Origin: a virus
Taxonomy: Duplodnaviria > Heunggongvirae > Uroviricota > Caudoviricetes
Strand: one strand, 5' to 3'
Virus record (IMG/VR): IMGVR_UViG_3300029615_000411
Span: 119,874 to 183,873 of that record
Length of the DNA stretch: 64,000 nt
Shown here: piece by piece, positions 1,085 through 44,292 of the stretch
Position numbering within the stretch: position 1 is the first letter of the stretch
How the letters are laid out: the number at the start of each line of letters is the position of its first letter
Position numbers and translations under genes: made by a program
Notes under the pieces: generated by a model
What the model saw: the letters and a program-made list of their open reading frames with translations, nothing else
What the model was told of the DNA's origin: nothing
Database searches by the model: none

Positions 1085-1120
1085 CTTTTATTGTAGCTAC
1101 TTTGCAGCAGTTTGCAAGAA
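1085..1120 (-). promoter_or_regulatory. class I promoter A (TTGCAA-16-TACAAT, spacer ACTGCTGCAAAGTAGC)
   Basis: Reverse complement gttcTTGCAAactgctgcaaagtagcTACAATaaaag. Confidence 0.45.
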
Positions 1121-1133
1121 CGGTGTCGTCTTC

Positions 1134-2540
1134 TTAAGCATGTTCAGGCAACCACTGCTGCGGGTAGGCTCGAAGTTTGTTGCGTGGCACACAATCGTTC
1201 AGAGCGGAGTTTTCAGCGAGCGCCATATCGATGATGTAATAGTCATCACCATTACGCATCACATCAATACTCCACTGCCCTACCAGTTCGACAGCAGGAA
1301 GAATCTTCTTAATTTCCTCCAGAATCATCCGAGCACTGTCATCGTATCGAGATTGCAGGATATCCTCGTGCATCTGATAGATGACATAGTCGTGGCGTTC
1401 CTGCGGAGTGCTTGCGTTCTTGAACTTACCCTTCATTACATCGGCTCGCCAATAAGGGCTGATACCCAGCACCTCATCAGCGTCGAAATCGACGAATACG
1501 CGGTACTCAGTATGCAGCGGCAAACCGTTGTAGATGGTCGGGTTGTGTTCCTTGTCCTTGATATATTCCCTGAGCACCCACTCGTTTGTGGTATTCGCAC
1601 CATAGAAGCAGGTATTGTTCAAAGGCGAAGCCATAGAACAGGTCAGATGATTCAGGAACAGGAAATACTCGCCCATCTCATTGATTTCCTTCGGGTCATG
1701 GATATGAGCGTTGCGAAACTCATACTTGGAAGAATAAGTTCCGGTCTTGATGAAGTAATCCTCGTGCTCATCCAGCTTGAATATCCGCTTGCAATAACGG
1801 TTTACGATTTCCTTGGTTACGGGATTCAGGGTTTCAAAACCAAGGCGAGTGAGCTGCAGCATCGGCAGCGGAACACGCAAAATCTTGGTATCAGGAATCC
1901 TGAAGAATTTGTTCCCGCACAACGCTTTTGCCAGCGGCGGAAGCCAAAATCCCATCGTGTTGGGATTCATTTCGAGCATCTGGTAGGTGAAGTCGTCGAG
2001 GTCAAGAATATCAAGACCCTGACGGAACTGGTTGTAGTAGAACTTTTTCATGCGGTCATCGCGTACATCCTTGTACTCGGCGTAATTCTGAAGCAGAATC
2101 TTATACGACGGCTCCGAAATATCGACCTTCACGAGATTTCCTGTCAGCTGAGGTCTGAGCTCTTCCGGGTATTTTTTCAGGTCATTGTTCGTTACCGGCA
2201 CAGCGTATCGAGATGCTGCATAGTTTACATAATATCCGCCGCGTTTATCATTGTAGATGTACAGGCGAGTACCATCTGTTAACTCACCTACGATACGGTC
2301 AATGAGTGTTTCAAGGTCCCGCGTAAACGGCACCCTCTTGTCAAGCATAGCTTTGACAGTAGCGGTATCCCACTGTAAAAAGTTCTCGGATAATGCCCCG
2401 CTGTCCAGCACCTGTTTCTTGTAGGTGTCCTCGAATGTTTTGAGGGCATCAGGGCTGGTTTTCAGCATTGCGGCAAGTTCTTCGTAGGAAAACGATTTAT
2501 CTTCCCTTTTGGTCATCATTTTACCAATTTTGGCAATCAT
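1134..2540 (-). CDS. hypothetical protein (about 468 aa); possibly ATP-grasp-like, unconfirmed
   Basis: Track start 2597 is TTG; in-frame ATG at 2540 is preceded by AAGGAGG. Confidence 0.5.
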   Translation of the reverse strand: MIAKIGKMMTKREDKSFSYEELAAMLKTSPDALKTFEDTYKKQVLDSGALSENFLQWDTATVKAMLDKRVPFTRDLETLIDRIVGELTDGTRLYIYNDKRGGYYVNYAASRYAVPVTNNDLKKYPEELRPQLTGNLVKVDISEPSYKILLQNYAEYKDVRDDRMKKFYYNQFRQGLDILDLDDFTYQMLEMNPNTMGFWLPPLAKALCGNKFFRIPDTKILRVPLPMLQLTRLGFETLNPVTKEIVNRYCKRIFKLDEHEDYFIKTGTYSSKYEFRNAHIHDPKEINEMGEYFLFLNHLTCSMASPLNNTCFYGANTTNEWVLREYIKDKEHNPTIYNGLPLHTEYRVFVDFDADEVLGISPYWRADVMKGKFKNASTPQERHDYVIYQMHEDILQSRYDDSARMILEEIKKILPAVELVGQWSIDVMRNGDDYYIIDMALAENSALNDCVPRNKLRAYPQQWLPEHA

Positions 2541-2566
2541 ATTTTCGATTTCCTCCTTTTTGGGAA

Positions 2567-3598
2567 TCAGGTGTTTGCAAAATTCGGATTCTTCCAAATC
2601 AACTTATTCCCGTAATAGACTTCGGGAATGTACTTGATGGGAATTCTGCGATTGTCTTCGAGTTGCGAATCGTTGTTCGCGATAAACTCCTCGATGCGAT
2701 TTTCTTCACTGCGCGGGGTGATGTTGCAAGTCGAGAAACCTCCACCGTACAGGATATCACTGTTCATCATACCTTTGACCGGATACTTTACTTCGGTCGT
2801 TTTACCGTTGATGTTCAGGACAAGGCGAACGGTTTCGTATTGCTTATATTGCTTAGCAAGTTCCACAAGAAGCCTGAACATGATTTCCTGAGTGTTCGGA
2901 CTATTGTACTTTCTCATATACTCTTCCGTCAACTCTTCCACCACAGCCAATGTAATCCCGTATAGGCGTCCAGACCGCCCGGAATTTGCCTTTTTGATTT
3001 TCTCCATCGTCCGTTCAGCCCAGCCGGTGGGATTAGCAAGATAATCCACTACCAGTTCATCGGCATTTGTGGATGTCAGGCCAAAGCAAGACCCGTTTCC
3101 AATCTCATCGACAATGCTGTCAATAGGGCTGCGATAATTCTTATACCCCTTTATTATGCGACAGAAAGCGTTCTGCCGTGCTATCTTGTCGTAATGACTG
3201 CCCTTGAGAATTTTCTTGTCTTCTTCCGTCACATTCTCTCGGAACATATCGAACAGCTTCTGTGCCATTTCCTCTATGACAGAATCCGAGGTAAAAGAAG
3301 AACGGCAGAAAATCGTTTTGAAGTCCTGTGTTTCATTGACGGTTTTGGCATTGTCGACAACGAGGCAAAGGAAGCGTATCTCTTGGTTGAATGTTACGGG
3401 TTTCTTTTCCAAGATTCCATAAAACCGCTGCCCGTACAAGGCATCTACCTTGTGCTCGCCATTGGCGAGCGGCACACGAATGAAACGGTAGTAGCGCCCG
3501 GACGGTTTTCCGGTATCGGGAATTGTGTTGCCTTCGAACACGGATGCGCCGGATTTGATAGCCTGCTCAAAATCCTCACGAGTTAAATTGATAGTCAT
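2567..3598 (-). CDS. hypothetical protein (about 343 aa)
   Basis: ORF 2567..3649; ATG 3598 (MTINLTREDF) with GAAAGGAAG RBS. Confidence 0.5.
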   Translation of the reverse strand: MTINLTREDFEQAIKSGASVFEGNTIPDTGKPSGRYYRFIRVPLANGEHKVDALYGQRFYGILEKKPVTFNQEIRFLCLVVDNAKTVNETQDFKTIFCRSSFTSDSVIEEMAQKLFDMFRENVTEEDKKILKGSHYDKIARQNAFCRIIKGYKNYRSPIDSIVDEIGNGSCFGLTSTNADELVVDYLANPTGWAERTMEKIKKANSGRSGRLYGITLAVVEELTEEYMRKYNSPNTQEIMFRLLVELAKQYKQYETVRLVLNINGKTTEVKYPVKGMMNSDILYGGGFSTCNITPRSEENRIEEFIANNDSQLEDNRRIPIKYIPEVYYGNKLIWKNPNFANT

Positions 3599-3627
3599 AA
3601 TTTCTTCCTTTCTGTTTTTATTATTTT

Positions 3628-4392
3628 TTAGCTGTTTTCTTCGATGCACAATTTGCTGCTACGAATGTTTTCCAACCATTTTTCATCCATAACATTGCCA
3701 ATACGATACTTCCTCTGGGATTCATAGGACCAGTCACAACCGACGACAGCATCACCGATGGCATTCAGATACAGTTCTCCATCAGTGATATTGATTCCGG
3801 CTTCATTTCTCGGTTTACAATCTCTCTCATATTCAATCACAAGTTCCGAAACTATAGGTTCTCTCTTTAGAATCTGATTTGCGTTGATAGTTTTGGCACG
3901 ACCCTCGTTAATGAGATATTGCTTGCGAAAATCCGTTACTTTATCATTACGATTATATCTCAAACCGCTAAGAATACTCGCACTTTCGCGGGGAATTTCT
4001 TCATGAAAATCATCGCTGCTGATACAAAGACCACACGAATAGTCATCCTTGTCATCGCAATAATTCCACCATTCGAGGCTCGCCAAAGCGAGTTCTACCA
4101 TCTTATCGACGGCTTTCCCGTTGGTTACCATATAAAAACTCCCAACGGAAATGTTTCGCTCTCTTACGGCGTTCAAAGTATAGCGGATAGCAGGAATATT
4201 CAAAGAAATCTCTCCACCCGTGAAGGTCAAGGAACTGATGTATCCTGCATTAGCAAAACTGTCAAGAAACGCATCGATATACTTTTCCTGAATATCGACC
4301 GCCTCCGCATCACCGCGTAAACAATGCGCACAGCACATATTGCAGCGACGCGTAACCTCGATTACCACATTACAAGCGTTTGAAATATACAT
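3628..4392 (-). CDS. radical SAM enzyme (CX3CX2C plus GGE motif) with extra C-terminal cysteines, possible auxiliary Fe-S (twitch/SPASM-like)
   Basis: RRCNMCCAHC = CxxxCxxC; TFTGGEISL SAM-binding motif; 5 further Cys in C-terminal half; AAAGGAG RBS before ATG 4392. Confidence 0.65.
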   Translation of the reverse strand: MYISNACNVVIEVTRRCNMCCAHCLRGDAEAVDIQEKYIDAFLDSFANAGYISSLTFTGGEISLNIPAIRYTLNAVRERNISVGSFYMVTNGKAVDKMVELALASLEWWNYCDDKDDYSCGLCISSDDFHEEIPRESASILSGLRYNRNDKVTDFRKQYLINEGRAKTINANQILKREPIVSELVIEYERDCKPRNEAGINITDGELYLNAIGDAVVGCDWSYESQRKYRIGNVMDEKWLENIRSSKLCIEENS

Positions 4393-4406
4393 CCTATTTA
4401 CTCCTT

Positions 4407-4718
4407 TCACCAATTCTCGTCCGCAAAGCTCTCATTGCGGTCAACGATGATATCCACATCCAGTGGTGTAATTTTACCCAGACCGTAATTCAAGAAGAAC
4501 GAGCCGGGAATGTCATCGACATCGCCCCAGTTCCAGCAACCACAGTTAATTTCAAGCTGTCGTTTGCCTTCGTCCGTCTTGAGATAATCTTTGATTGCGC
4601 CGCGCAGGACGCTTTCCGGGTCATGGATTTGCTCCGGATTATAGCTAAACTGAATCAGTGTGCATTCCACTGCACGGTCAACAATCTCATTAGCAACAAT
4701 TGTAAAAACCTTTGTCAT
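4407..4718 (-). CDS. hypothetical protein (about 103 aa)
   Basis: GAGGAGG RBS before ATG 4718 (MTKVFTIV...). Confidence 0.45.
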   Translation of the reverse strand: MTKVFTIVANEIVDRAVECTLIQFSYNPEQIHDPESVLRGAIKDYLKTDEGKRQLEINCGCWNWGDVDDIPGSFFLNYGLGKITPLDVDIIVDRNESFADENW

Positions 4719-4740
4719 AGTAATCCTCCTCAATAAACAG

Positions 4741-5196
4741 TCAGGCACAACGAACGCGAATGACATTATCATCATTCGACAAGCAAACAATCACGTCCAC
4801 ATCCGGTCCCTCTTTCTCAAGAGCACCTTCAAGGATTGGCTTGATTTTGTGCCATTGATTTTCTGTGATTTTACAGCCGGGGCTCATAAGCAGAATATTT
4901 GCTTCGGCCAGCTTTGCTTTCATGACCACTTGTAGGAAACAACCGTATAAGTATCCGTAATTCACCTTGTTATTTTCAAGACAAATCATATCTGCTATTA
5001 CGGTCCTTTTATTACCATAGCAGTTCACAACATGTCCCAAGTGATGTTCAGATTTGTCATACCGTACCTTGGCATCCGGAAACATGCTTTCAATAGATTC
5101 GTTTTTGAAAACACCACTGCTATCACAAAAAACACAAACGATATTTTTGCCGGGAAACTCCTGACTTGATAAACAGCTTTTTGTCTTTTTTATCAA
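4741..5196 (-). CDS. hypothetical protein (151 aa); start uncertain (TTG at 5196)
   Basis: ORF track; sits downstream of class I promoter B and a leader hairpin. Confidence 0.4.
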   Translation of the reverse strand: MIKKTKSCLSSQEFPGKNIVCVFCDSSGVFKNESIESMFPDAKVRYDKSEHHLGHVVNCYGNKRTVIADMICLENNKVNYGYLYGCFLQVVMKAKLAEANILLMSPGCKITENQWHKIKPILEGALEKEGPDVDVIVCLSNDDNVIRVRCA

Positions 5197-5222
5197 TTTT
5201 TCTTCATCATCCTTTCGGCGAT

Positions 5223-5261
5223 AACAAAAAATACCGCCACCTCTTACGAGATAGCGGTATG
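5223..5261 (-). terminator. leader hairpin plus T-tract downstream of promoter B (ATACCGC...GCGGTAT TTTTTTG)
   Basis: 7-bp stem, 16-nt loop, T6. Confidence 0.4.
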
Positions 5262-5302
5262 TTGATTTTGAATTGTAATTGTATTTTATCTATCGAATAT
5301 AC

Positions 5303-5334
5303 TTAGTATATCGATTTTGCAGCAATTTGCAAGC
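5303..5334 (-). promoter_or_regulatory. class I promoter B (TTGCAA-ATTGCTGCAAAATCGA-TATACT)
   Basis: Conserved TTGCAAATTGCTGCAAA core. Confidence 0.45.
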
Positions 5335-5389
5335 GCAGCTATTTAGTGGCGCTTCAACTTTTTCCGGGGGTTTTATTTTTTCGCTTTAC

Positions 5390-6187
5390 TTACAGCAAAC
5401 TCATCTCTGCACGATACGCATTGGCGTCGTAGCCCCAGATATTACAAGCAAAATCGATTGCTGCGTTACCTTTGCTGGGATAACCGTCGTCAACAAAATC
5501 TCCTTTGCAAAGCGCATACCAGCCACAATTACTTCCGATATCCTCATCCGCGTATTTTACACGAATATTGGCGTGTGGAAATTTACGGCTCAGTTCGACA
5601 ATGGCGCATGCAGGTGTATTCCAAGGGGTTTTAAAATTGATGGCAATTTTCGTATCATTTATTCTACGGATATTCACATCAAAAACATCCCACTTTACGC
5701 CCCAGTTTGCGACACGCCAATAATACCATGAAGCATATCCATATTTTACGGCATTTTCCAAAGCACGCTCCGCTACAGTATCGAACTCTTCGACATTATA
5801 GGGGATACGTTTCAGGTTGATGAGTTTGCTATCTTTCACATGTTCCAGTTTGGAGCGAGCTTCCGCAGCTTCCTTGCAAACACCAACCATATCTGATGCA
5901 GTAAGTTTTTCCTTCCTGTGCAGGAGAAAAGTTTCTCTGCAAATAGCCTTTCTTACGTTTTCCGGATACTTCTCCGGGTCAATTCCATATTTATTTACGG
6001 CCGCCCATGCGAGCATCCTGTCACATGGCGATACGATTTGCAGTGATTCCGGCATAGGAACAACAGACTGAAGCGAAAAATCTTTTTCGCCATCATCGTC
6101 TTTTCCCTTGACACGATTCAGAAAATCCTCCAACTCTGACTGAGAATTGAAAGAAACAGACATGATATTCATGATATTGTTTGCCAT
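5390..6187 (-). CDS. hypothetical protein (265 aa)
   Basis: ATG 6187 with AAGGAG RBS at 7 nt spacing. Confidence 0.5.
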   Translation of the reverse strand: MANNIMNIMSVSFNSQSELEDFLNRVKGKDDDGEKDFSLQSVVPMPESLQIVSPCDRMLAWAAVNKYGIDPEKYPENVRKAICRETFLLHRKEKLTASDMVGVCKEAAEARSKLEHVKDSKLINLKRIPYNVEEFDTVAERALENAVKYGYASWYYWRVANWGVKWDVFDVNIRRINDTKIAINFKTPWNTPACAIVELSRKFPHANIRVKYADEDIGSNCGWYALCKGDFVDDGYPSKGNAAIDFACNIWGYDANAYRAEMSLL

Positions 6188-6204
6188 TTATTTTCTCCTT
6201 TGTC

Positions 6205-6393
6205 TTACGCGGGTACGCGTACGCAAGAATAGTGGCAAGCTCCACAATTCAGGAACTTTGCCCGCTTCATCGCCTCATCCAAGCTGAACCGCGTCGCTTC
6301 GTTAATGTTGGCAGTATCACTCTTACACTCTACGTAAAAACGCACATCTCCAAAAAACGGGTCTTTACGGCTTAGCGCATACATATTTTCCAA
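6205..6393 (-). CDS. small Cys-containing hypothetical protein (62 aa), TTG start
   Basis: GAGGAGG RBS 6 nt before TTG 6393. Confidence 0.4.
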   Translation of the reverse strand: MENMYALSRKDPFFGDVRFYVECKSDTANINEATRFSLDEAMKRAKFLNCGACHYSCVRVPA

Positions 6394-6405
6394 AATAAGT
6401 CCTCC

Positions 6406-7146
6406 TCAAATGTATCTCTCCCAGAACTTTTCGAATTCCTCGCTCGGCATCTGTGCTTCCGTTTCATCCAACAGTCTTTCGTAAGAATCACTGGAAACAT
6501 CGGTGCCAATAAAATCGGCAACGGCATCATGACCGCGCTGCATCAAGGCGTCTTTCAGAATCGCCCAACGACATTCGTGAATGGCATCATCCAGCGTTTT
6601 GTTGCCATCAGGCTGCCAATACTCGCCTGTCTGCTGAATTCTATAAAACTCATCCAGCGCATCATCAACATTGTTTTCGAGAAGAATATCGTCAATAAAA
6701 TTGACAGGATAATCCTTGCCGTTGATTTCCACTTCTGCATAACTGAAACAGTCGTCGTCACACGGCATTGCTGCACAGGTGACATCGAAAATTTCGTGCG
6801 TTTCCTTGTTTACCTTGCAAGGCAACTGGAATGTTGCTCCGGACTCGAAGTAAGAAAAGACAACCGCTTCCTCAACATCGTTGTCGGGGCATTTCGCAGA
6901 CTGGATGAATTCCGGCATAGACAGCACATCAATACTCTCTCTTCGGTCGCCCATGGCAGGATAAACCTTCATGATTGTATAACCATCATGCTGCAGCTTT
7001 CGGATAGCACGGCACAGGTCGAGATGCATTTCATGAAGACTGATGCCACTACCTCGTCCGTCTTTTTTGGTATAGATTTCGACAACTACATCTTCAGAGG
7101 TTGTCTGAACAACATAATAAGTCTTATCATTACAAATCTTAAACAT
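6406..7146 (-). CDS. hypothetical acidic protein (about 246 aa)
   Basis: ATG 7146 (MFKICNDK) with AGGGAG RBS. Confidence 0.5.
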   Translation of the reverse strand: MFKICNDKTYYVVQTTSEDVVVEIYTKKDGRGSGISLHEMHLDLCRAIRKLQHDGYTIMKVYPAMGDRRESIDVLSMPEFIQSAKCPDNDVEEAVVFSYFESGATFQLPCKVNKETHEIFDVTCAAMPCDDDCFSYAEVEINGKDYPVNFIDDILLENNVDDALDEFYRIQQTGEYWQPDGNKTLDDAIHECRWAILKDALMQRGHDAVADFIGTDVSSDSYERLLDETEAQMPSEEFEKFWERYI

Positions 7147-7167
7147 AGCACTTATCTCCCTTCTCAA

Positions 7168-7365
7168 TCAAACAAAAGCCAGAAAATCGTTGGCCGGAAT
7201 CTGTCGCTGGGCATCGTAAGCGGTGCCGTAGACATCATCACCCCAACTGATTTGCACATCCTTCGTCCACAGAGCAAGCTCAGACATTTTTGCTGCCACG
7301 GCTTTTGCGGAGCTGCAGATATACTTCTTGACGGCGTTGTTTTCTTTTACGTTAATTGTAAACAT
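7168..7365 (-). CDS. small hypothetical protein (about 65 aa)
   Basis: AAGGAGG 8 nt before ATG 7365; the longer track ORF overlaps a terminator hairpin. Confidence 0.45.
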   Translation of the reverse strand: MFTINVKENNAVKKYICSSAKAVAAKMSELALWTKDVQISWGDDVYGTAYDAQRQIPANDFLAFV

Positions 7366-7385
7366 TTCAATTTCCTCCTTAACAC

Positions 7386-7419
7386 AACAAAAAACAGCCA
7401 TCTCGATTGAGATGGCTGC
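7386..7419 (-). terminator. leader intrinsic terminator downstream of promoter C (CAGCCATCTC-aatc-GAGATGGCTG TTTTTTG)
   Basis: Perfect 10-bp stem, tetraloop, T6. Confidence 0.6.
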
Positions 7420-7479
7420 ACGAACAGATTTTGAACTAAAACAAGTCAAGGAATTGATACTTTGATTTATCTTAGTTCT

Positions 7480-7512
7480 TTAATTATATCTACTTTGCAG
7501 CAATTGACAAGA
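7480..7512 (-). promoter_or_regulatory. class I promoter C (TTGTCA-ATTGCTGCAAAGTAGAT-ATAATT)
   Basis: Conserved core, 17 nt spacer. Confidence 0.45.
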
Positions 7513-7538
7513 TAGCCACAACAGGTGCGACATCATAT

Positions 7539-7760
7539 TCATGGTACTTTTTCAACGATGTCTTCACCATAAACCACGAATAGACCAGAGCCGTTATCCC
7601 AGCGAACCATGATACTGCCGGTATCGTCTATACCTGAAACTGTGCCGAGTGTTCCAATAGGCGGAGCCTGAATATCATCCATCTTTAACAGTTTCACGCG
7701 TGTTCCGGCTGGATATTCGGCACGGAGCGCAGCAACGATTTCTCGATTTGGAAAAATCAT
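7539..7760 (-). CDS. DUF4314-like small protein
   Basis: RVKLLKMDDIQAPPIGTLGTVSGIDDTGSIMVRWDNGSGL matches the DUF4314 signature common on Firmicutes mobile elements. Confidence 0.55.
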   Translation of the reverse strand: MIFPNREIVAALRAEYPAGTRVKLLKMDDIQAPPIGTLGTVSGIDDTGSIMVRWDNGSGLFVVYGEDIVEKVP

Positions 7761-7776
7761 AAATACACCTCGCCTC

Positions 7777-8325
7777 TTAGTATGTCACGGTGTCAAAGAA
7801 CTCCTGACATTCCTCATCGTTCAACACAACGCCAAAGTACGCAACACGCTCGACGGTAGTTTCCCACACCTTAACGGTACGCGTCATAGGCTGAACGACC
7901 CACGAATGCTGTCGCCAAAGGCCATCTTCACTTAAAGCGTACCCGGTTGCAATCTGACATCTGCCACGATTTGCATCCCACAGATAAGCAGCGTTCTGAT
8001 GACAACGACAATCTTCGCCCTTCTTCATGTACTTGGAGCCATAGAAGAACTGTCCTCGTTCCAGCACTTTCTCCGCATCTTCGTCACGGGTATTGAGCAA
8101 AACCTCATCACCGCCGAAAGTTAAAATTCTATCACGCAGAGCACGCAAAGTCTTTTTCATTTCGTTTGTGAGCCAAGGCGCGGTGGCGTCCTCGTTGTAC
8201 AGCTGCATTGCCTCTACTCGTTTTTTCCATTCCTTATCCATTGGATTCCAGCGGACATGGTTCGCAACCATATCAGGAGAGGTCATGGGCGTTTTGGCAT
8301 TCCAACTAAATTTCTTATTTGCCAT
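7777..8325 (-). CDS. hypothetical protein (about 182 aa)
   Basis: AAAAGGAG RBS before ATG 8325 (MANKKFSW). Confidence 0.5.
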   Translation of the reverse strand: MANKKFSWNAKTPMTSPDMVANHVRWNPMDKEWKKRVEAMQLYNEDATAPWLTNEMKKTLRALRDRILTFGGDEVLLNTRDEDAEKVLERGQFFYGSKYMKKGEDCRCHQNAAYLWDANRGRCQIATGYALSEDGLWRQHSWVVQPMTRTVKVWETTVERVAYFGVVLNDEECQEFFDTVTY

Positions 8326-8339
8326 TATAATACTCCTTT

Positions 8340-8376
8340 TCAACAAAACCGCTTACCTTTTTCAGGTAAGCGGTTA
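8340..8376 (-). terminator. intergenic hairpin (AACCGCTTACC-tgaaaaa-GGTAAGCGGTT TTTGTTG) before gene 7777..8325
   Basis: 11-bp stem. Confidence 0.45.
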
Positions 8377-8384
8377 TATTTTGA

Positions 8385-9047
8385 TTATGCGAGCATGGGA
8401 TATATTTCTTTCTTTACCGCCCTCATAAGAGCGGCAGCATGTGCGGCGTTTTGTGCATTGCCAACACCTGCGCGAGATATTTTTGGATTCACACGCTCAA
8501 TGAAATTTTTCTTATACGGAGCAGAAATGCTCCTTGCAGCATCGATAATCTGTTTCATGTTTTCAGCGTCGATTTTTTGCTGAACGCATAATTTTTGTAA
8601 CCGTGTGCAAAAAGCGTCTTTGTTGTCCCGTACAGAAGTAGAATGATTTTTTGTTTCTTTATGTGGGATGACTGCCTCACAGGCTATCCGTTTAACGCTT
8701 AACCCTTTACTGCACATGGTCTGAATAAGCCCGTCATATCCCTTGTCTGCCGACACGATGATATAATTGCTTTTCTTTCCTGTTGTGCAAAGACTACCAA
8801 GTTTAGCAACAACGTGGAAATCCATGCTGTTTTTCCCTGCATTGGAGACGCAGAACTCTACTTGGTTGACTGGGTACTTTGCCAGAAAAACCTGCAATTC
8901 TTTAAGTGACATGTATGTGGCTTCCGGACCGATGAAGATAATCAGCTTGTCCTTTTTGGTTTTAAAATGCACTACATTTAGCCATTTTTTTTGGACATTC
9001 TCGGTATCTATCAGCCAAACGGTTCGAGTGCGGCTCACACATTTCAC
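8385..9047 (-). CDS. NYN-domain (LabA-like) putative RNase; GTG start overlapping upstream stop as GTGA
   Basis: WLIDTENV ... NAGKNSMDFHVVAKLG ... IIVSADKGYDGLIQ resembles NYN motifs; GTG at 9047 overlaps TGA of the 9044..9340 gene. Confidence 0.5.
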   Translation of the reverse strand: MKCVSRTRTVWLIDTENVQKKWLNVVHFKTKKDKLIIFIGPEATYMSLKELQVFLAKYPVNQVEFCVSNAGKNSMDFHVVAKLGSLCTTGKKSNYIIVSADKGYDGLIQTMCSKGLSVKRIACEAVIPHKETKNHSTSVRDNKDAFCTRLQKLCVQQKIDAENMKQIIDAARSISAPYKKNFIERVNPKISRAGVGNAQNAAHAAALMRAVKKEIYPMLA

Positions 9048-9340
9048 CCCCACACTTCGGTGACTTTTCTGGGGATTCCGTGCTTGTCGATACACTGCCG
9101 GTAAATTGTAAACTTACTGTTCGGGTGCGCCTTCATATAGTCAGCGCGTGCCGCGTCCGTGTTCGCAATCAGTAGATTTTTATCGGCAATAAGAACGCTT
9201 TCCCATCCGGAATCGAGAAGCGTACTGGCAACATCTTTGAAAGATACGTCTGCAGGCGTATCGCACTTACAAACACCTCGTGCGATAGGATGCGCAGTGG
9301 CAATGATTTTTGCTGCCGTCATCACAGTCTCGTAACTCAT
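9044..9340 (-). CDS. hypothetical protein (98 aa)
   Basis: AGGAGG RBS before ATG 9340. Confidence 0.5.
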   Translation of the reverse strand: MSYETVMTAAKIIATAHPIARGVCKCDTPADVSFKDVASTLLDSGWESVLIADKNLLIANTDAARADYMKAHPNSKFTIYRQCIDKHGIPRKVTEVWG

Positions 9341-9352
9341 AGTGTCCTCCTA

Positions 9353-9604
9353 TCACGCCACCTCGAAATACTTTTCGACATCGCTGTTGATAGAACGCGC
9401 AGGAACACCCTTGGTCTTCTCACTGTAGTAGCCACGCTTTTTCAGCGTGTTCTTAACAATAGAAATGCTCTTGTCGCTGCGCATGGTACGCTTTCTCTTT
9501 TCGATGCGTGCAGAACGAATGCGCTTTTCGTACTTCTGCATACGCACAACATCCATGATGATAGGAGCAGTAGTCTCCGCGATATACTCATTAAAAGTTT
9601 TCAT
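9353..9604 (-). CDS. small basic hypothetical protein (about 83 aa)
   Basis: GGAGG RBS; ATG 9604 (GTG alternative at 9610). Confidence 0.45.
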   Translation of the reverse strand: MKTFNEYIAETTAPIIMDVVRMQKYEKRIRSARIEKRKRTMRSDKSISIVKNTLKKRGYYSEKTKGVPARSINSDVEKYFEVA

Positions 9605-9639
9605 ATTCACATATCCTCCGTAATATATTATTTTTCTAA

Positions 9640-9675
9640 ATAAAAAAGGCAGCTATTTTTTCAAAAATAGCTACC
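9640..9675 (-). terminator. leader hairpin downstream of promoter D (GGTAGCTATTTTT-ga-AAAAATAGCTGCC TTTTTT)
   Basis: Near-palindromic 13-bp stem, U-run. Confidence 0.45.
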
Positions 9676-9761
9676 TTTAGTACATTGTGATTGGCGATAA
9701 TTCAATCATACACGCCCATAAAACTCTGGTGCGATGCATTGTGTGATTTTATTTATCGGAT

Positions 9762-9796
9762 AACTATATATTATTAACTTTGCAGCAATTTGCAAG
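9762..9796 (-). promoter_or_regulatory. class I promoter D (TTGCAA-ATTGCTGCAAAGTTAA-TAATAT)
   Basis: Conserved core; flanked by terminators on both sides. Confidence 0.45.
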
Positions 9797-9805
9797 CGCA
9801 GCATA

Positions 9806-9840
9806 CAATAAAAAGCGCCTCCCGTATTACGGGGAAGCGC
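9806..9840 (-). terminator. intrinsic terminator after membrane-protein gene 9852..10451 (GGCGCTTCCC-cgtaatac-GGGAGGCGC TTTTTATTG)
   Basis: GC-rich 9-bp stem plus U-run. Confidence 0.6.
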
Positions 9841-9851
9841 CTTAGTGTTAT

Positions 9852-10451
9852 TTATTCTTTGTTATCCGAAGGAATTTTCGGAGACTTCTTCTTCTCAACG
9901 AAAGCATCAATCGTTCGGCCGAAACGATTAAGAAGCATTGCGCCAAGATAAAGAATGATGCCGCTAATCATGATACCAACATCAAGCGTCTCAAATCCTG
10001 CGAAACTCTTGCAATAAATAGAACTGACTGCGAGAGCGCCAAGCGTTGGCAGCGAAGCAATCGTTACCGTAAGTGCCGCATACACAACACTATTCAGAAC
10101 AGTACCAATACTTGCAATGATGCCGCGCTTTTTAAAAGTGCGCTGCTTATCGTAGGACATCTGATAAGCCCCGATAAGACTTGGTTCACGAATAATGTCG
10201 CGCAGATGCAGCAGGCACCACGCCAAAACAGCACACCCGATGCCGCAGCCGACCTTATAGGCACTCATGCGAGAACCCCACAGGTCATTTGCGTTGGCGG
10301 GAACGACGAACGCCAGAATGTTGAACAGGACGGCAAACAAGACGAACATTGCCATGTGGGGATTCTTGGCAGTGTTGCGAGCCTCGTTCTTTGCCTTACT
10401 GGCGACTTCCTCGGTCTGATTGTGAATTTTTACATTGAGAATCTTTTCCAT
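9852..10451 (-). CDS. integral membrane protein (about 4 TM)
   Basis: Hydrophobic segments; ATG 10451; strong terminator follows. Confidence 0.5.
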   Translation of the reverse strand: MEKILNVKIHNQTEEVASKAKNEARNTAKNPHMAMFVLFAVLFNILAFVVPANANDLWGSRMSAYKVGCGIGCAVLAWCLLHLRDIIREPSLIGAYQMSYDKQRTFKKRGIIASIGTVLNSVVYAALTVTIASLPTLGALAVSSIYCKSFAGFETLDVGIMISGIILYLGAMLLNRFGRTIDAFVEKKKSPKIPSDNKE

Positions 10452-10496
10452 TTTTTTACCTTTCCTTTCGTGTGGACGATTTAGTTGTAAATCGTT

Positions 10497-10814
10497 TTAA
10501 TCTCTGTGATAGCGTTGCATCATACCGAACATAGCCGCAAGCGCCAATGCAAGGTAGATGTAAGTGTATCCCTTTTCAATCATGTTCAGAATCACGATGG
10601 TAAAGCTCGAAAAAGCACCACAATAAAAAGCGGCACCAAGTTTATCGACCAAAAACATCAACATCTGGGCAACGACTGCCGCAGGAACAAGAAGCTTGAG
10701 ACGCTTGGCCTCAATGATTCCGTCCCAGTCAAGAACAGCAATGAAGCTGGCTCCCATGCAGATGACCCAAACAAAAGCGAAAATAAGGGTTGCTGTGTCA
10801 AAAAAGTTACTCAT
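10497..10814 (-). CDS. small 3-TM membrane protein, paralog A; holin-like topology, function unproven
   Basis: GGAGG 8 nt before ATG 10814; about 50% identical to the next gene; ends KRYHR. Confidence 0.45.
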   Translation of the reverse strand: MSNFFDTATLIFAFVWVICMGASFIAVLDWDGIIEAKRLKLLVPAAVVAQMLMFLVDKLGAAFYCGAFSSFTIVILNMIEKGYTYIYLALALAAMFGMMQRYHRD

Positions 10815-10869
10815 ATCAGTTACCTCCAAAATTACTGATGGTTTACGGGTTTATGGACATCGAATCGCA

Positions 10870-11184
10870 TTATCTGTGATAGCGCTTTGTCATGCCAAAC
10901 ATAGCTGCAACCATAATCGCCAAATATGCGTACAAATACAAGTTCTCAATCATTCCAAGAACTGAAATTGTAAGGCTGGCGAACATACCGCAATACAGAA
11001 CAGCACCAATTTTTTTGATGATGAACAGCGTGGCTTGCGCAATGATGGCGACAACGAGAAAAACTTTGATGTATTTAGCCTCAAATAAACCATCCCAATC
11101 GATGGCAAGGAAGATACAAGCCCCCACAGCGAGAGCCCAAACCAAAGCAGCAACAGATGCAACAGCGTCAAAGAAGCTTAACAT
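10870..11184 (-). CDS. small 3-TM membrane protein, paralog B (tandem duplicate)
   Basis: GGAGG 8 nt before ATG 11184; DWDG, AKxxK and MFGMxxRYHR conserved with paralog A. Confidence 0.45.
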   Translation of the reverse strand: MLSFFDAVASVAALVWALAVGACIFLAIDWDGLFEAKYIKVFLVVAIIAQATLFIIKKIGAVLYCGMFASLTISVLGMIENLYLYAYLAIMVAAMFGMTKRYHR

Positions 11185-11237: not shown

Positions 11238-11273
11238 GCAAAAAGCCGCCAATGGGACAATCCACTGGCGGCT
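11238..11273 (-). terminator. hairpin plus T-tract after sortase operon / promoter E (GCCGCCAGTGG...CCATTGGCGGC TTTTTG)
   Basis: GC-rich stem plus T5. Confidence 0.55.
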
Positions 11274-11324
11274 CAGTTGCCGATTGCAATAATACAGTTA
11301 AATCATTTGATTTATGTTATGTCT

Positions 11325-11356
11325 CAATTATATTAACTTCGCAGCATAATGCAAGA
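11325..11356 (-). promoter_or_regulatory. class I-like promoter E, divergent copy (TTGCAT-TATGCTGCGAAGTTAAT-ATAATT)
   Basis: Degenerate copy of the core downstream of the sortase gene. Confidence 0.35.
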
Positions 11357-11362
11357 GCTTTT

Positions 11363-19878: not shown

Positions 19879-19879
19879 T

Positions 19880-29584: not shown

Positions 29585-30223
29585 TTATTTCGTGGTTTTT
29601 GGGCCTTTTAAAAGCCCCTTGGTTCTGAGAATGTTCCGCACATATGCAAGGCGTCTTCTGCCAAAGCCATGTGCATTCTGCTTACTTTTGTTTTCGGCAT
29701 AAGCCATATCAGAATACTTGATGCCGTCTTTGTAATGCTTCAAGAGATAATCTGTAACAGTCGTATCTCTGATTGCAAGAATAGCATCGACAATTCTCGC
29801 TTCTTCTTTTTTCGAATAAGGATAATCGTCGATGTTATACCTGACCCCGTCCAGCCCGCAAATGATATTCACGGGCCAACCCTTGCGGAAGGCAATGTTT
29901 GCTTCGCGGATATTCCGTTCTGTCATGACATCACCGGTCTTATCTCTTCTGTGCCTGTACAATGTTCGCTGCGCACAGGCTTTGCATACACCCCGCGCAT
30001 ATATGATAGAAAGCCTATTACAAATAGGGCATTCTTCGATTCGGACATGTTTTCCGGACTTAACGGTTTGATAATCCAATCCGTTGATGTAAGTCTTGTT
30101 GTTAAAGGTGATTGTTTCTGCACCCTTATATTCAGGGAACTCATCTCCTGTATAAATTCCCTTCATCTCTGCGGGGAGAGTATCTGCGTCGCTTTGAAGT
30201 ACGTAGAATTTCTTTTTGCTCAT
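29585..30223 (-). CDS. hypothetical protein with CxxC zinc ribbon (212 aa)
   Basis: CPICNRL...CKAC. Confidence 0.45.
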   Translation of the reverse strand: MSKKKFYVLQSDADTLPAEMKGIYTGDEFPEYKGAETITFNNKTYINGLDYQTVKSGKHVRIEECPICNRLSIIYARGVCKACAQRTLYRHRRDKTGDVMTERNIREANIAFRKGWPVNIICGLDGVRYNIDDYPYSKKEEARIVDAILAIRDTTVTDYLLKHYKDGIKYSDMAYAENKSKQNAHGFGRRRLAYVRNILRTKGLLKGPKTTK

Positions 30224-31124: not shown

Positions 31125-31158
31125 ATATTATACCACATTAAAACAAGGTAGTCAACGA
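31125..31158 (-). promoter_or_regulatory. class II promoter P3 (TTGACT-17-TGgTATAATATA)
   Basis: Reverse complement TTGACTaccttgttttaatgtggTATAATata. Confidence 0.5.
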
Positions 31159-34274: not shown

Positions 34275-34307
34275 TTATTGTATCTACTTTGCAGCAAATA
34301 GCAAAGA
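34275..34307 (-). promoter_or_regulatory. class I promoter F (TTTGCT-ATTTGCTGCAAAGTAGA-TACAAT)
   Basis: Upstream of the 33124..34212 secreted protein gene. Confidence 0.4.
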
Positions 34308-34351
34308 AAAAAGCCGAGCGGCTTATCACCGCTCGGCATCCCCATCACATA

Positions 34352-34926: not shown

Positions 34927-34958
34927 ATATTATACCACATTTTGCCTTAATGGTCAAC
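34927..34958 (-). promoter_or_regulatory. class II promoter P5 (TTGACC-17-TGgTATAATATA)
   Basis: Reverse complement TTGACCattaaggcaaaatgtggTATAATata. Confidence 0.5.
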
Positions 34959-35880: not shown

Positions 35881-35913
35881 TATATTATACCACCAAAAAC
35901 ATAAATAGTCAAC
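35881..35913 (-). promoter_or_regulatory. class II promoter P6 (TTGACT-17-TGgTATAATATA) for the acidic lipoprotein
   Basis: Reverse complement TTGACTatttatgtttttggtggTATAATata. Confidence 0.5.
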
Positions 35914-43944: not shown

Positions 43945-44259
43945 GTTAGTTGCCCTCCTAATAATGTGAGTGTTCTGTGGTTTTACCACAGCCGGATTTA
44001 TATACACCCTTACCTACTCCCTAGTGTGCAGCCTCGATTGTAGATAAGAAAGTATATCAAAACACAAGCAATCAAATCGCATATTTACAATATGCCACAA
44101 AAAAGACAGAAAAGTCAATCAAAAATTTTGACACAAAAATGCCACCCATGAACGCATTCTCATATTTCATATGGACATGGATGGTTGAAACATTAACGCA
44201 AAACCTGCTTGACTATAGCTATTATTTGTTCTGAGAAATTTGATGCTGTATTTATATCT

Positions 44260-44292
44260 ATTATATTACTTACTTTGCAGCAACGGTCAATA
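44260..44292 (-). promoter_or_regulatory. class I-like promoter G for giant adhesin 1 (TTGACC-GTTGCTGCAAAGTAAG-TAATAT)
   Basis: Shares GCTGCAAAGTA spacer motif; followed by about 300 nt leader. Confidence 0.4.

Follow-up and report, generated by a model that had tools for sequence, protein, structure and literature searches.

A repeated promoter, leader RNA and terminator cassette on a Hodor megaplasmid of the human gut and its proposed role in two-level control of accessory genes

The stretch of DNA analysed here (the window, 64,000 nt) encodes SecY, FKBP/trigger factor and ParM-like proteins and two giant ORFs, one of 2671 aa and one of at least 6521 aa that is open at the window end. It belongs to one of the conjugative megaplasmids of the human gut named "Hodor", and not to a phage. 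Hodor megaplasmids were described in a 2026 preprint, in which the promoters are unmentioned, as human-gut contigs of >200 kb encoding SecY/SecE, trigger factor, ParM, a type I-C Cas system and giant MBG-domain proteins of ~2640 and >7300 aa (PMC12934698). Proteins identical to those of the window were found on 270–372-kb gut-metagenome contigs, and SecE, Csd1 and Cas7 were present in relatives. A phage or known plasmid origin was rejected, as a 25-kb segment had no megablast match among 50,697 phage and 72,556 plasmid records. The Hodor megaplasmid is very common in the human gut, and these plasmids are uncultured, carrying roughly 350 kb of genes.

A reading of the window made earlier from sequence only had reported seven near-identical promoters (class I), all oriented for minus-strand transcription. 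Motif search and alignment of the copies recovered these seven sites and established the promoter family as real: a weight matrix found exactly seven copies at the reported places (33.8–44.9 bits), all intergenic and all on the minus strand, and no other site above 12 bits on either strand of the 64 kb. A 14-mer search of the window returned 8 matches at ≤2 mismatches versus 0.6 expected by chance; two of these, at 23270 and 54816, are located within ORFs, were not confirmed by the matrix and were discarded as chance. Copies 1–5 lie in a run of small genes, most without a family match. Copy 7 does precede the first giant adhesin gene, as had been noted, in a 364-nt gap between the giant ORFs and ~250 nt upstream of GTG 44007; an equivalent site was also flagged in a relative (L084). 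The copy 6 sequence was identical in 8 related contigs. Being intergenic, with proper hexamers and spacing, and upstream of a co-oriented ORF, the copies look like genuine promoters, as proposed. Class-I promoters often abut the T-run of an upstream terminator.

A family size of seven did not hold beyond the window. On one 346-kb relative 52 unique class-I sites were found on one strand and 0 on the other, and all fetched loci together held 129 unique sites; since loci were fetched via the class-I motif itself, density is stated only as at least 52 per genome. A strict promoter pattern had many matches in IMG/VR Hodor contigs, and a regulon of a host genome was rejected upon 0 matches to it in 185,579 species-representative genomes (one per species). 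Class-I-like boxes in backbone regions of two more distant relatives (L229 and L039) gave nothing interpretable.

The weight-matrix consensus of class I is cTTGCnn-TTTGCTGCAAAGTnnn-TAyAmT. All seven window copies carry TTGnnn, a 16-nt spacer and TAnnnT with a minus-strand ORF downstream, and the same layout was present in the 129 unique copies from relatives; hexamers and spacing (-35 TTGCnn, 16 nt, -10 TAyAmT) thus fit a sigma-70/sigma-A promoter. There is no extended -10, and the -35 reproducibly deviates from TTGACA, its positions 5–6 holding almost no information across 40 distinct copies. What is conserved among these 40 is cTTGC followed by an invariant spacer box, TTTGCTGCAAAGT, at about -28 to -16 (13 nt, also written TGCTGCAAAGT); copy 5, at 11.3 kb, reads TTGCAT-TATGCTGCGAAGTTAA-TATAAT. 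The inverted repeat TTGCA-N6-TGCAA, noted earlier within the spacer, is exact in only 3/7 copies (1.1, 5.3 and 9.8 kb) and is not what is conserved. The box core, TTTGC-T-GCAAA, is a short palindrome with half-sites ~6 bp apart and asymmetric conservation that extends rightward only (AAAGT). A Y-A step is conserved ~7 nt after the -10, at the expected start, and the covarying RNA helices described below begin there.

Other promoter types were considered and rejected: sigma-54 or ECF-type promoters by inspection, on account of mismatching hexamers and spacing; promoter hairpins of the single-stranded Frpo type known from plasmid leading regions, as there is no inverted promoter partner and no opposite-strand matrix match; and CRISPR-guided recognition of the box, as conservation lacks a 6-nt periodicity despite a TTC just 5' of TTGC. 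The box was matched by 0/14 CRISPR spacers.

Seven further promoters in the window (class II, TTGACy-N14-TGTGGTATAAT) are canonical sigma-A promoters with an extended -10, variable spacers and no class-I box; a leader terminator follows at most 1/7. In a second Hodor group the class-I layout recurs, but its box is GTGCGAATnGA and its terminator stem is another one. Across this deep split the groups share the -35 TTGC, a core TGCRAA at -23 to -18 (5 nt from the -10 in both), the linker ATTCAnAAT and, at +6 to +13, GATAGATA, although SecY of the groups sharing these blocks is only 90% identical; a relative with 59% SecY identity carries TTTGTTGCAAAGT with the same leader. Because class-II spacers vary and the corresponding spacer position is occupied by another box in the sister group, the invariant spacer is not a general sigma-A requirement, and the natural reading is therefore that a regulon is controlled by a dedicated DNA-reading factor encoded on the element. 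The presence of >50 class-I sites, all in one orientation and before genes throughout the megaplasmid, suggests that one plasmid-made factor may switch much of it on or off.

Table 1. Positions of class-I cassettes, class-II promoters and candidate regulator genes in the window
Feature	Position	Strand	Details
Class-I promoter, copy 1	1088..1123	-	TTGCAA / ACTGCTGCAAAGT / TACAAT; 42.1 bits
Leader RNA, copy 1	985..1083	-	99 nt; SL1 UAAGAUAA...UUAUCUUA; covariance-model match 33.2 bits
Leader terminator, copy 1	993–1018	-	GCGACCAUCUC-GUCA-GAGAUGGCCGC; ORF 656–970
Class-I promoter, copy 2	5303..5338	-	TTGCAA / ATTGCTGCAAAAT / TATACT; 40.1 bits
Leader RNA, copy 2	5226..5298	-	73 nt, short form; 5' end pairs beside linker AUUCAAAAUC
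Leader terminator, copy 2	5232–5259	-	UACCGCUAUCUC-GUAA-GAGGUGGCGGUA
Operon after copy 2	5196 down to 1134	-	5 genes including a radical-SAM gene (Pfam)
Class-I promoter, copy 3	7481..7516	-	TTGTCA / ATTGCTGCAAAGT / TATAAT; 42.7 bits; 11/12 hexamer matches
Leader RNA, copy 3	7389..7476	-	88 nt, canonical long form; SL1 AACUAAGAUAAAUCAAAG...CUUGACUUGUUUUAGUU; linker UUCAAAAUCUG; covariance-model match 63 bits, E 1.5e-10
Leader terminator, copy 3	7395–7418	-	GCAGCCAUCUC-AAUC-GAGAUGGCUG + U6; then SD, ATG 7365
Class-I promoter, copy 4	9766..9801	-	TTGCAA / ATTGCTGCAAAGT / TAATAT; 36.4 bits
Leader RNA, copy 4	9642..9761	-	120 nt; SL1 CGATAA...TTATCG; terminator 9648–9675 + T-run; GTG 9610
Class-I promoter, copy 5 (degenerate)	11325..11360	-	TTGCAT / TATGCTGCGAAGT / TATAAT; 34.0 bits
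Leader RNA, copy 5	11240..11320	-	81 nt; covariance-model match 11241–11334, 25.9 bits
Leader terminator hairpin, copy 5	11245–11272	-	dG -23.8 + T-run; ATG 11184 (ORF 10870–11184)
Class-I promoter, copy 6	34275..34310	-	TTGCTA / TTTGCTGCAAAGT / TACAAT; 44.9 bits
Class-I promoter, copy 7	44261..44296	-	33.8 bits; -35 TTGACC 44285–44290; box GTTGCTGCAAAGT 44272–44284; -10 TAATAT 44263–44268; predicted start ~44256
5' leader, copy 7	44135..44256	-	Atypical long-loop hairpin CCATCCATG...CATGGGTGG, 44142–44184, + T-run; dG -14.5
Class-II promoter (example)	31127..31155	-	TTGACT-N14-TGTGGTATAAT; heads the operon holding candidate regulators
Other class-II promoters	17008–17036, 18531–18559, 22920–22948 (+), 33044–33072, 34929–34957, 35884–35912		
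Candidate box-reading factor, 212 aa, Hodor-specific	29585..30223	-	Zinc ribbon + C-terminal domain resembling sigma region 4
Candidate regulator, 93-aa HTH protein	28671–28952		

The sequence-only reading had identified the promoter part correctly and missed the larger unit, in which the promoter is strictly coupled to a structured leader ending in a terminator. The order of this cassette is: often the terminator of the preceding gene, the class-I promoter, the start, a leader stem-loop (SL1), the linker AUUCAAAAUC, an intrinsic terminator, and the SD and start codon of the gene. Leader RNAs are about 40–140 nt long (median 88), with the terminator 37–141 nt from the predicted start. The leader 5' box (GAUAAAU / GAUAGAUA) at +6 to +13 forms SL1, which spans about +1 to +45, and the terminator lies at about +45 to +140, so that both hairpins are inside the promoter's own transcript. 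The terminator upper stem is conserved (GCCAUCUC...GAGAUGGC). Terminators are strong (mean hairpin dG -16 kcal/mol, U-runs ≥4), and the SD and start codon follow at 10–35 nt.

Intrinsic terminators were found after 43/52 sites on the 346-kb relative and 93/129 sites over all fetched loci. In the window they follow six of the seven copies, five of them canonical with the SD and start codon 15–35 nt past the U-run; at copy 7 the GTG of the 2671-aa ORF lies ~128 nt past it. At copy 6 a leader terminator is missing, and a 5' UTR of ~60 nt leads to a lipoprotein-like ORF (ATG ~34212, stop 33124). As ~28% of class-I promoters (36/129 by a crude detector), copy 6 included, are without a leader terminator, the promoter and terminator modules can work apart. 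In the other direction coupling was strict: 29/29 elements consisting of linker plus conserved hairpin lay ≤130 nt downstream of a class-I promoter.

Both helices covary. In a covariance-model alignment of 27 distinct leaders, 20/24 pairs showed compensatory changes, and paired cells made up 95% versus 36–50% with slid partners, a percentage inflated by the alignment being model-fitted and including a few opposite-strand matches. The covariation score was 0.444 versus 0.05–0.08 for slid partners and 0.17 for shuffles (0/500 reached 0.444). RNAalifold on a plain MAFFT alignment returned the terminator only, the SL1 arms being misaligned, and a hand-specified seed with a covariance model was used. 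Frequent G-U pairs point to RNA on the cassette strand. The whole window had no Rfam 15 match at gathering thresholds (matches in 900–11500 were at chance level, far below gathering scores) and no tRNA, and a known RNA family or tRNA-linked element was rejected on these grounds. A riboswitch or classical attenuator was likewise rejected: in truncated transcripts the terminator 5' arm was sequestered at 0.28 versus 0.33 with shuffled upstream sequence, and at least half of the arm was sequestered in 9% of leaders versus 19% of shuffles. In one relative a mini-CRISPR spacer matches a linker and terminator segment at 33/36 positions, beside a TTC PAM.

Two HTH proteins had been proposed as regulators. 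The product of 25407–25637 is a recognisable HTH protein (HTH_3; XRE/RstR/DicA type), and that of 23018–23710 matches no family. The 212-aa protein at 29585–30223 is a candidate box-reading factor by inference only; its matches to known folds are weak, at Foldseek E values of 0.05 at best, and it has no recognisable sigma-2 domain. Weak fold matches included structures 5clv and 2w7n, connected with the RK2/RP4 kor regulon. A plasmid sigma factor was rejected after phmmer with RpoD and SigA regions 2–4 returned 0 hits in 4,262 ORFs (~1.8 Mb of Hodor loci), a search of partial coverage that ECF-type sigmas could escape. The Q-antiterminator family was absent from the Pfam matches of window proteins and from the top 25 families in a set of 126 further Hodor proteins (less than half a genome), and in the examined parts there was no protein of the Q, NusG/LoaP, ANTAR or BglG type.

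The idea of a single-regulator regulon keeps its dedicated box-reading factor; its simple operator repression does not have precedence, since strict coupling of the promoter to a leader ending in a terminator makes antitermination or attenuation at least as likely. We consider it somewhat more probable than the opposite that these are sigma-A-type promoters with a plasmid-specific box and a default-off leader terminator overcome by a trans-acting factor, giving two-level control. Host sigma-A RNA polymerase would initiate only under control of a plasmid-encoded box-reading protein, and the transcript would by default stop at the leader terminator. As no space for another promoter exists between the leader terminator and the gene, and the leader has no alternative antiterminator fold, downstream expression would need a trans-acting read-through factor. 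This could be (a) a Q-like factor recruited at the promoter box and travelling with polymerase, or (b) an RNA-binding antiterminator reading the leader box, linker or terminator arm, in which case the DNA box would serve a separate repressor or activator; the two forms appear about equally likely. Against (a), the +6 to +13 block is, on reading of the sequences, not a convincing -10-like pause element, and a processive mechanism would override operon-end terminators too; against (b), a candidate protein was not found in the parts examined. The conserved terminator upper stem is explained by neither. Under either form, accessory genes and the 2671-aa surface protein gene, and in relatives also mini-CRISPR arrays, would be subject to a default-off switch that has two checkpoints and acts plasmid-wide.

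The lambdoid late switch consists of the promoter PR' with a Q-binding element, a promoter-proximal pause and the terminator tR'; a short RNA is made unless the factor is loaded. Like it, the Hodor cassette combines a putative recognition element between -35 and -10 (the spacer box at -28 to -16) with an initially transcribed segment that is conserved and a nearby downstream terminator, and we know of no other arrangement that explains strict promoter-leader-terminator coupling by itself. Unlike lambdoid phages, with one unit per genome, Hodor plasmids carry >50 cassettes, with no Q homolog found in the parts examined. The +6 to +13 block (GATAAAT, GATAGATA, AAAAAAT) is not a clear -10-like pause signal, a -10-like hexamer (TAAGAT, AAAAAT) being present by inspection in some copies only, and the conserved sequence of the terminator stem goes beyond what Q needs. 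A stronger version of the proposal, in which one promoter-coupled antitermination switch runs most accessory genes through a factor (the 212-aa protein as best guess) that loads at the box and alone licenses read-through, strikes us as improbable from the sequence evidence. If true, it would be a multi-copy, genome-wide analogue of lambda Q/PR' and the structured leader a new cis-regulatory RNA class; box and factor would diverge together from one plasmid group to the next, which would prevent cross-activation between co-resident or rival plasmids; and the self-matching mini-CRISPR spacer would add a CRISPR-guided control layer on some cassettes.

The two-level proposal has to be weighed against other uses of the box. 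In the RK2/RP4 kor system, the analogy drawn in the sequence-only reading, KorA/KorB operators lie in many plasmid promoters, and the resemblance is that a plasmid-encoded global regulator (here putative) would act through one short operator repeated in many plasmid backbone promoters. Applied here, a single plasmid repressor (such as the XRE protein of 25407–25637 or the 212-aa sigma-4-like protein) would use the box as its operator. Without that repressor, as just after conjugative entry, all class-I promoters would be active at once, and the leader hairpins would do no more than insulate or attenuate and stabilise 5' ends, with part of the transcripts constitutively reading through. Half-sites (TTTGC/GCAAA) ~6 bp apart are, however, atypical for a dimeric HTH protein, and conservation is asymmetric (..AAAGT); kor operators number 7–12 and are clean palindromes placed on or next to the hexamers in promoters that are otherwise diverse, whereas here promoter and transcribed leader are conserved as a unit, copies are 5–7 times more numerous and the palindrome is short and asymmetric. 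An operator would also leave unexplained the conserved, covarying, class-I-only leader box, linker and terminator stem, and strong terminators before genes, and we regard this reading as possible though unlikely. Middle promoters of T4 combine a sigma-70 -10 with a MotA box that replaces the -35, centred at -30. By analogy, a plasmid sigma-like or sigma-remodelling factor might read the box and TTGC, which would then not be an operator. Such a factor would suit the two sharply different promoter classes on one element, the class-I -35 that is reproducibly off TTGACA without an extended -10, the shared core TGCRAA at a fixed 5 nt from the -10 in both groups, and the Hodor-specific protein with a domain resembling sigma region 4, the -35-binding domain. 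As in T4, a host-type -10 is joined to an upstream element-specific box in a temporal or conditional class beside plain host-type promoters; unlike T4, the -35-like TTGC is kept, the box lies at -28 to -16, and no MotA/AsiA homologs were seen. The phmmer result (no sigma-70-family protein in 4,262 ORFs, at partial coverage that an ECF factor could escape) and the weak fold matches and missing recognisable sigma-2 domain of the 212-aa protein speak against such a factor, which we hold to be rather improbable.

The short terminated RNAs might themselves be the product: ~50 paralogous sRNAs of 75–120 nt with a common 5' motif, which in trans would titrate a host RNA-binding protein or RNase (as a decoy or sponge) or serve as antisense or anti-CRISPR-like RNAs, with downstream genes expressed only by leakage. 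Near-consensus promoters followed by a structured RNA and terminator, A-rich conserved single-stranded motifs and the 33/36 spacer match to linker and terminator by the TTC PAM agree with this; the terminators found, however, precede a same-strand SD and ORF by tens of nt (copy 7 ~128) without promoter space, their position directly upstream of operons argues for a cis role, and there is no Rfam match or known sRNA-like partner. We judge it highly improbable. The cassettes could also be chiefly recombination modules, a portable promoter-terminator unit that shuffles accessory genes and owes its uniformity to spread and gene conversion, without a dedicated regulator. Such modules have a precedent in the PeSLs discussed below (~50 per genome) and would account for 38 cassette pairs ≥88% identical with unrelated sequence on one or both sides and for window copies 1–5 standing in a run of small genes, most without a family match. 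Against this, conservation is block-wise, between-block positions being randomised while box, start, 5' motif, linker and upper stem are fixed and stems covary, which argues for selection on function and not recent copying, and the blocks persist across groups with 90% SecY identity and in the 59% relative; we find it very unlikely as the main explanation. Recombination and regulation are not mutually exclusive.

The two-level proposal also has counterparts among Gram-positive conjugative elements, in which leader terminators and antitermination are documented (conAn of pLS20, PMC8191782; Tn916, PMC11658703); leader attenuation in pLS20, with a leader of 456 nt, is reported in a preprint (bioRxiv 10.1101/2025.11.24.689506). 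In these elements of Firmicutes, as proposed here, 5'-leader terminators and element-encoded RNA or protein antitermination gate long co-oriented operons and limit spurious expression. Those elements have one large leader per long operon, whereas the short Hodor leader stands before dozens of small units and is tied to a special promoter, and no homology was detected. For Hodor the cassette family provides a testable regulatory logic, with two promoter classes of which one has a new structured leader and a putative default-off terminator; dozens of accessory genes are preceded by class-I cassettes, as is one giant surface-protein gene of the two, which the Hodor preprint (PMC12934698) suggests to be important for plasmid spread. 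The 13-nt box that differs between two plasmid groups, the leader covariance model and the candidate regulators can be put to use in reporter work, in the detection and classification of Hodor fragments and in the analysis of metatranscriptomes that already exist.

Promoter-early stem-loops (PeSLs) of the T4-like phages RB49, phi1, nt-1 and PST (PMC2839356, PMC4122927) resemble the cassette in several respects. Both are ~100-nt composites of a strong sigma-70-type promoter and a terminating stem-loop, present in tens of copies (~50 per genome) directly upstream of small orphan or accessory genes, ending in an SD and start codon, with edges that coincide with breakpoints of insertion, deletion or replacement. 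The PeSL stem-loop may be contained in the promoter, overlie it, precede it or stand just ahead of the start, and its presumed function is to halt transcription coming in from upstream, whereas the two Hodor hairpins are downstream of the start, so that the promoter's own transcript meets the terminator; the Hodor cassette is therefore a PeSL analogue and not a member. It differs further in its invariant non-hexamer spacer box, conserved single-stranded RNA motifs, Firmicute-type megaplasmid setting and lack of sequence homology. The idea of a mobile regulatory cassette would thereby extend from T4-like phages to a Firmicute megaplasmid and suggests how large plasmids may shuffle cargo while regulation is kept intact. 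Being near-identical over ~120–150 nt, the cassettes would also act as portable homology, and homology between plasmid variants appears often to break at cassette edges. Related cassettes with unrelated flanks were found: among cassette pairs ≥88% identical, 20 had unrelated upstream flanks and 18 had both flanks unrelated (random identity ~0.39), and these 38 flank-divergent pairs include pairs within one locus.

Both strands of the 64-kb window were scanned with a weight matrix of 36 columns, built from 40 distinct copies of the class-I promoter, and exactly seven sites were recovered, all on the minus strand (33.8 – 44.9 bits), with no further site above 12 bits on either strand. The seven-copy family proposed in the sequence-only reading was thus borne out. 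The core 14-mer (ATTGCTGCAAAGTA) gave 8 matches at up to 2 mismatches in the window against 0.6 expected by chance, and the 11.3-kb copy was the most degenerate. The sites read as sigma-70/sigma-A promoters (-35 TTGCnn, 16-nt spacer, -10 TAyAmT), with information concentrated in cTTGC, in TTTGCTGCAAAGT (approximately -28 to -16) and at -10 positions 1, 2 and 6 (TAnnnT). The inverted repeat TTGCA-N6-TGCAA, which that reading had placed in the spacer, is exact in just 3 of 7 copies and depends on -35 positions without information. Its view of a promoter family under coordinated control, carried by a mobile element, holds; the palindrome was wrong, and the leader and terminator, the scale of the family and the group-specific box had been missed.

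Features in the window (window coordinates; class-I copies from the weight matrix) and mini-arrays in related loci (L numbers)
Feature	Position	Strand	Predicted start	U-run end	Remark
Class-I copy 1	1088-1123	minus	~1083	985	
Class-I copy 2	5303-5338	minus	~5298	5226	
Class-I copy 3	7481-7516	minus	~7476	7389	
Class-I copy 4	9766-9801	minus	~9761	9642	
Class-I copy 5	11325-11360	minus	~11320	11240	
Class-I copy 6	34275-34310	minus			
Class-I copy 7	44261-44296	minus			
14-mer partial match	23270-23283	minus			inside ORF, no flanking hexamers, <12 bits; judged chance
14-mer partial match	54816-54829	minus			as preceding
Leader-model match	8344-8419	minus			20 bits, E 0.08, yet no class-I promoter upstream
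Class-II promoter	17008-17036	minus			
Class-II promoter	18531-18559	minus			
Class-II promoter	22920-22948	plus			
Class-II promoter	31127-31155	minus			
Class-II promoter	33044-33072	minus			
Class-II promoter	34929-34957	minus			
Class-II promoter	35884-35912	minus			
Cargo behind class-I promoters 2-4	1134-5196, 5390-7365, 8385-9095	minus			named proteins lie among small ORFs without family match
Radical-SAM protein	3628-4413	minus			
DUF1281_C/Api92-like protein	5390-6187	minus			
PIN7 nuclease-like protein	8385-9095	minus			
XRE gene	25407-25637	plus			RstR/DicA-like
Backbone operon	25634-31155	minus			
93-aa HTH/Cys-rich protein	28671-28952	minus			
212-aa Zn-ribbon/sigma-region-4-like protein	29585-30223	minus			
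Mini-arrays, window's group	L049:2500-3600; L014, L019, L027, L030, L032, L061, L066, L069, L088, L089, L097, L106				
Mini-arrays, other group	L041:14160-17600				own repeat GACGCAGTCTGTACGACTGCATAAGATTGAAAT

A terminator scan placed a strong intrinsic terminator (hairpin dG -14 to -24 kcal/mol) downstream of copies 1 – 5, on the same strand and ahead of the next ORF, giving leaders of 73 – 120 nt with a start codon 15 – 35 nt past the end of the U-run; at copy 7 the hairpin is atypical, with a long loop, and for copy 6 the scan found no leader terminator. Leader terminators follow 43 of 52 class-I promoters on a single contig and 93 of 129 across all loci fetched from relatives (median leader 88 nt). 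In foldings of many copies, the transcript starts at a conserved Y-A and its first nucleotides form the 5' arm of a stem-loop, SL1, including a conserved block (..AAGAUAAAU.. / ..CGAUAGAUAAAA..) fixed at +6 to +13; the loop of SL1 varies. A conserved single-stranded linker, AUUCAAAAUC(U)G, lies 3' of SL1 and is followed by the terminator, whose upper stem is also conserved (GC[C/U]AUCUC-loop-GAGAUGGC); in a shorter leader variant, the 5' end pairs adjacent to the linker. Every one of the 29 distinct elements made up of the linker and the conserved hairpin has a class-I promoter within 130 nt on its upstream side. Promoter, leader RNA and terminator are together called the cassette below.

Plain MAFFT/RNAalifold recovered the terminator only, and a covariance model was therefore built on a structure set by hand for three in-register seeds. 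The model matched 4 of the 5 canonical window leaders (copies 3, 1, 5 and 2 at 63, 33, 26 and 22 bits), the copy 4 leader being absent from its 14 window matches, and gave 63 matches in relatives. Across 27 distinct sequences, in an alignment fitted to the model and including a few opposite-strand matches, paired cells amounted to 95% against 36 – 50% with partners slid by 1 – 3 columns, compensatory double changes occurred in 20 of 24 pairs, and the covariation score was 0.444, compared with 0.05 – 0.08 when partners were slid and 0.17 after shuffling (none of 500 shuffles reached 0.444). Many pairs are G-U, which indicates an RNA on this strand. No Rfam family matched the leader.

Megablast against phage and plasmid collections gave no match to the window. 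Its gene set, by Pfam, is unusual and almost entirely on the minus strand (SecY, a trigger-factor-like FKBP protein, a ParM/Alp7A-like actin, an XRE HTH protein, Dam, flotillin, a radical-SAM protein, a PIN7 protein and two giant MBG-domain ORFs), and identical copies of the flotillin protein occur on 270 – 372-kb contigs from many human-gut metagenomes. SecY homologues at 99%, 90%, 70% and 59% identity form a series, carried by contigs of 120 – 380 kb; the nearest cellular homologues are ~49% identical, and the only one with a named source is from Gemmiger. Exactly such elements, in two deeply diverged groups, are described in a 2026 preprint as the Hodor conjugative megaplasmids (PMC12934698), in which the words promoter, terminator, sigma and intergenic are absent; the class-I motif sequence had no occurrence in the searchable literature. 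Public stool metagenomes with paired metatranscriptomes are named in the preprint, for example DNA SRR7880223 and RNA SRR7880364 (PRJNA492158). The cassette is undescribed for Hodor plasmids and is best filed with promoter/stem-loop regulatory cassettes and with leader-terminator control of conjugative elements. The strict class-I pattern had no match in 185,579 species (one genome per species) and matched IMG/VR contigs. By the matrix, 52 distinct sites lie on one strand and 0 on the other of a 345,980-bp contig (151 kb of it scanned), and 129 distinct sites were counted across all fetched loci of the window's plasmid group, a minimum count and not a density since the loci were retrieved via the motif itself.

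Class-II promoters (TTGACy-N14-TGTGGTATAAT(ATA)), seven of which lie in the window, are distinct from class I and by their sequence are canonical Firmicute sigma-A promoters with an extended -10. They are common to all Hodor relatives, distant ones included, and head backbone, secretion and partition genes, with SD and start codon directly downstream. Their spacers vary, so the invariant class-I spacer is not a polymerase requirement; at most 1 of the 7 has anything terminator-like, and the leader terminator is therefore specific to class I.

The spacer box of the window's group (GCTGCAAAGT) is absent from the group at 90% SecY identity (L041 type), which has its own (GTGCGAATnGA; more than 120 occurrences in IMG/VR) within the promoter cTTGCAC-nnnnGTGCGAATnGAn-TAnAAT, likewise with a 16-nt spacer. 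The L041-type leader carries SL1 from nUGUACGAUAGAUACCAU..., then the linker AUUCAyAAUUU and a terminator whose conserved stem is another one (GGCGGACUUCC...GGAAGUCCGCC), followed by SD and ATG. Both groups keep the -35 TTGC, place the core TGCRAA precisely 5 nt ahead of the -10, and agree in the start, in GATAGATA at +6 to +13 and in the linker; the box flanks and the terminator stem differ. In the 59%-SecY relative the leader type is unchanged and goes with TTTGTTGCAAAGT. Conservation in blocks across so deep a split, with randomised positions between, argues for function and not recent copying. Being group-specific, the box points to a plasmid-encoded reader.

Between terminator and gene the sequence leaves no room for another promoter, and no alternative antiterminator is encoded in the leader (terminator 5' arm sequestered 0.28 against 0.33 with shuffled upstream sequence). 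In the mechanism proposed here, transcription would by default terminate in the leader, and read-through into the gene would require a factor acting in trans. Either a Q-like factor would be recruited at the promoter box, or an RNA-binding antiterminator would read the leader motifs or the terminator arm while the box serves a separate repressor or activator; judged from sequence, the two versions are about equally likely. Recruitment of a Q-like factor at the box would explain the strict coupling of promoter, leader and terminator; however, the +6 to +13 block is -10-like only in some cases, no Q homologue was found among the window proteins or the further Hodor proteins examined, and processive read-through would override operon-end terminators. 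A kor-type repressor, for which the leader terminators would have to be leaky, is unlikely. Somewhat less likely again is a dedicated sigma-like factor: a search of 4,262 ORFs of the fetched loci turned up no sigma-70-family protein. A sigma-region-4-like protein (212 aa) is encoded in the backbone operon headed by the class-II promoter at 31127-31155. This operon further encodes a 239-aa protein ahead of the 212-aa one and, after the latter, the Dam methylase, a 93-aa protein with weak PHROG matches to 'late transcriptional activator' (E ~2e-3), a DUF2325 protein and a 449-aa protein, an order that recurs in a relative even though the 212-aa orthologue there shares only 45% identity; the operon is adjoined by the divergent XRE gene and a ParM-like gene. 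Of these, the 212-aa, 93-aa and XRE proteins are candidate regulators, as leads only; an orthologue from the other plasmid group, P0126, is 66% identical. The second regulator candidate of the sequence-only reading (23018-23710) matched nothing in family searches.

Trans-controlled read-through also has to be weighed against two readings in which the cassette is not a switch for the next gene. That the short RNAs, with their covarying structure, are themselves the real product is highly improbable. That the cassettes are purely recombinational modules is improbable, though a little less so. The cassettes do provide portable homology: of the pairs sharing at least 88% identity, 20 differ entirely in their upstream flanks and 18 on both sides (random identity level ~0.39), some of them within one locus. 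PeSLs of T4-like phages, which are ~100-nt promoter and stem-loop cassettes lying upstream of orphan ORFs at ~50 per genome, mediate modular shuffling (PMC2839356, PMC4122927). Hodor cassettes resemble PeSLs in having unrelated flanks around near-identical units and differ in that their hairpins sit downstream of the start site.

The genes that follow class-I promoters 2 – 4 possibly form a defence, anti-defence or other accessory set. At window 6363-6500, relatives (L016:4654-5091, L013) have ~440 nt extra, and a 138-nt stretch of the window aligns to them twice; the duplication or indel falls outside the cassettes. L018, L010 and L029 lose their homology to the window at 3539, inside the operon, and mosaic breakpoints are therefore not all at cassettes.

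Many scattered mini-CRISPR arrays of 2 – 3 type I-C-like repeats (GTTGCAACCCGCACGGGTTGCGTTAGATTGAAAT, ~69-nt period) were seen in relatives, every one with a conserved ~190-nt leader and at least one directly downstream of a cassette; the window has no such array, and in the preprint the sole mention is of 'an apparently degraded repeat array' (PMC12934698). Spacer AAAATCCGTAACCAAACGGCTATCTCAATATGAGAT (L032 reverse strand, ~400 – 640) matches 33/36 the linker and terminator of the very next cassette's class-I leader, in the same sense as the leader RNA. TTC, the type I-C PAM, precedes its protospacer and belongs to the conserved linker ATTCAAAATC. On the L019 reverse strand (~3440 – 3700), the segment matched by AAAATCCGTAACCAAACGGCTATCTCAATATGAGAT, together with the second repeat, is joined in register to a class-I promoter and SL1. 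We take these self-matching arrangements to be reminiscent of CreTA/CreR-type self-targeting regulatory mini-arrays. Spacer GTAGGTTCGAATCCTACCCGGCGCACCATAAGGCC (L014, L019, L030) resembles a tRNA 3' end and matches other-group loci (L109, L116, L129, L203, L212) with 97% identity across 35 nt, a hint of possible targeting of one plasmid by another.
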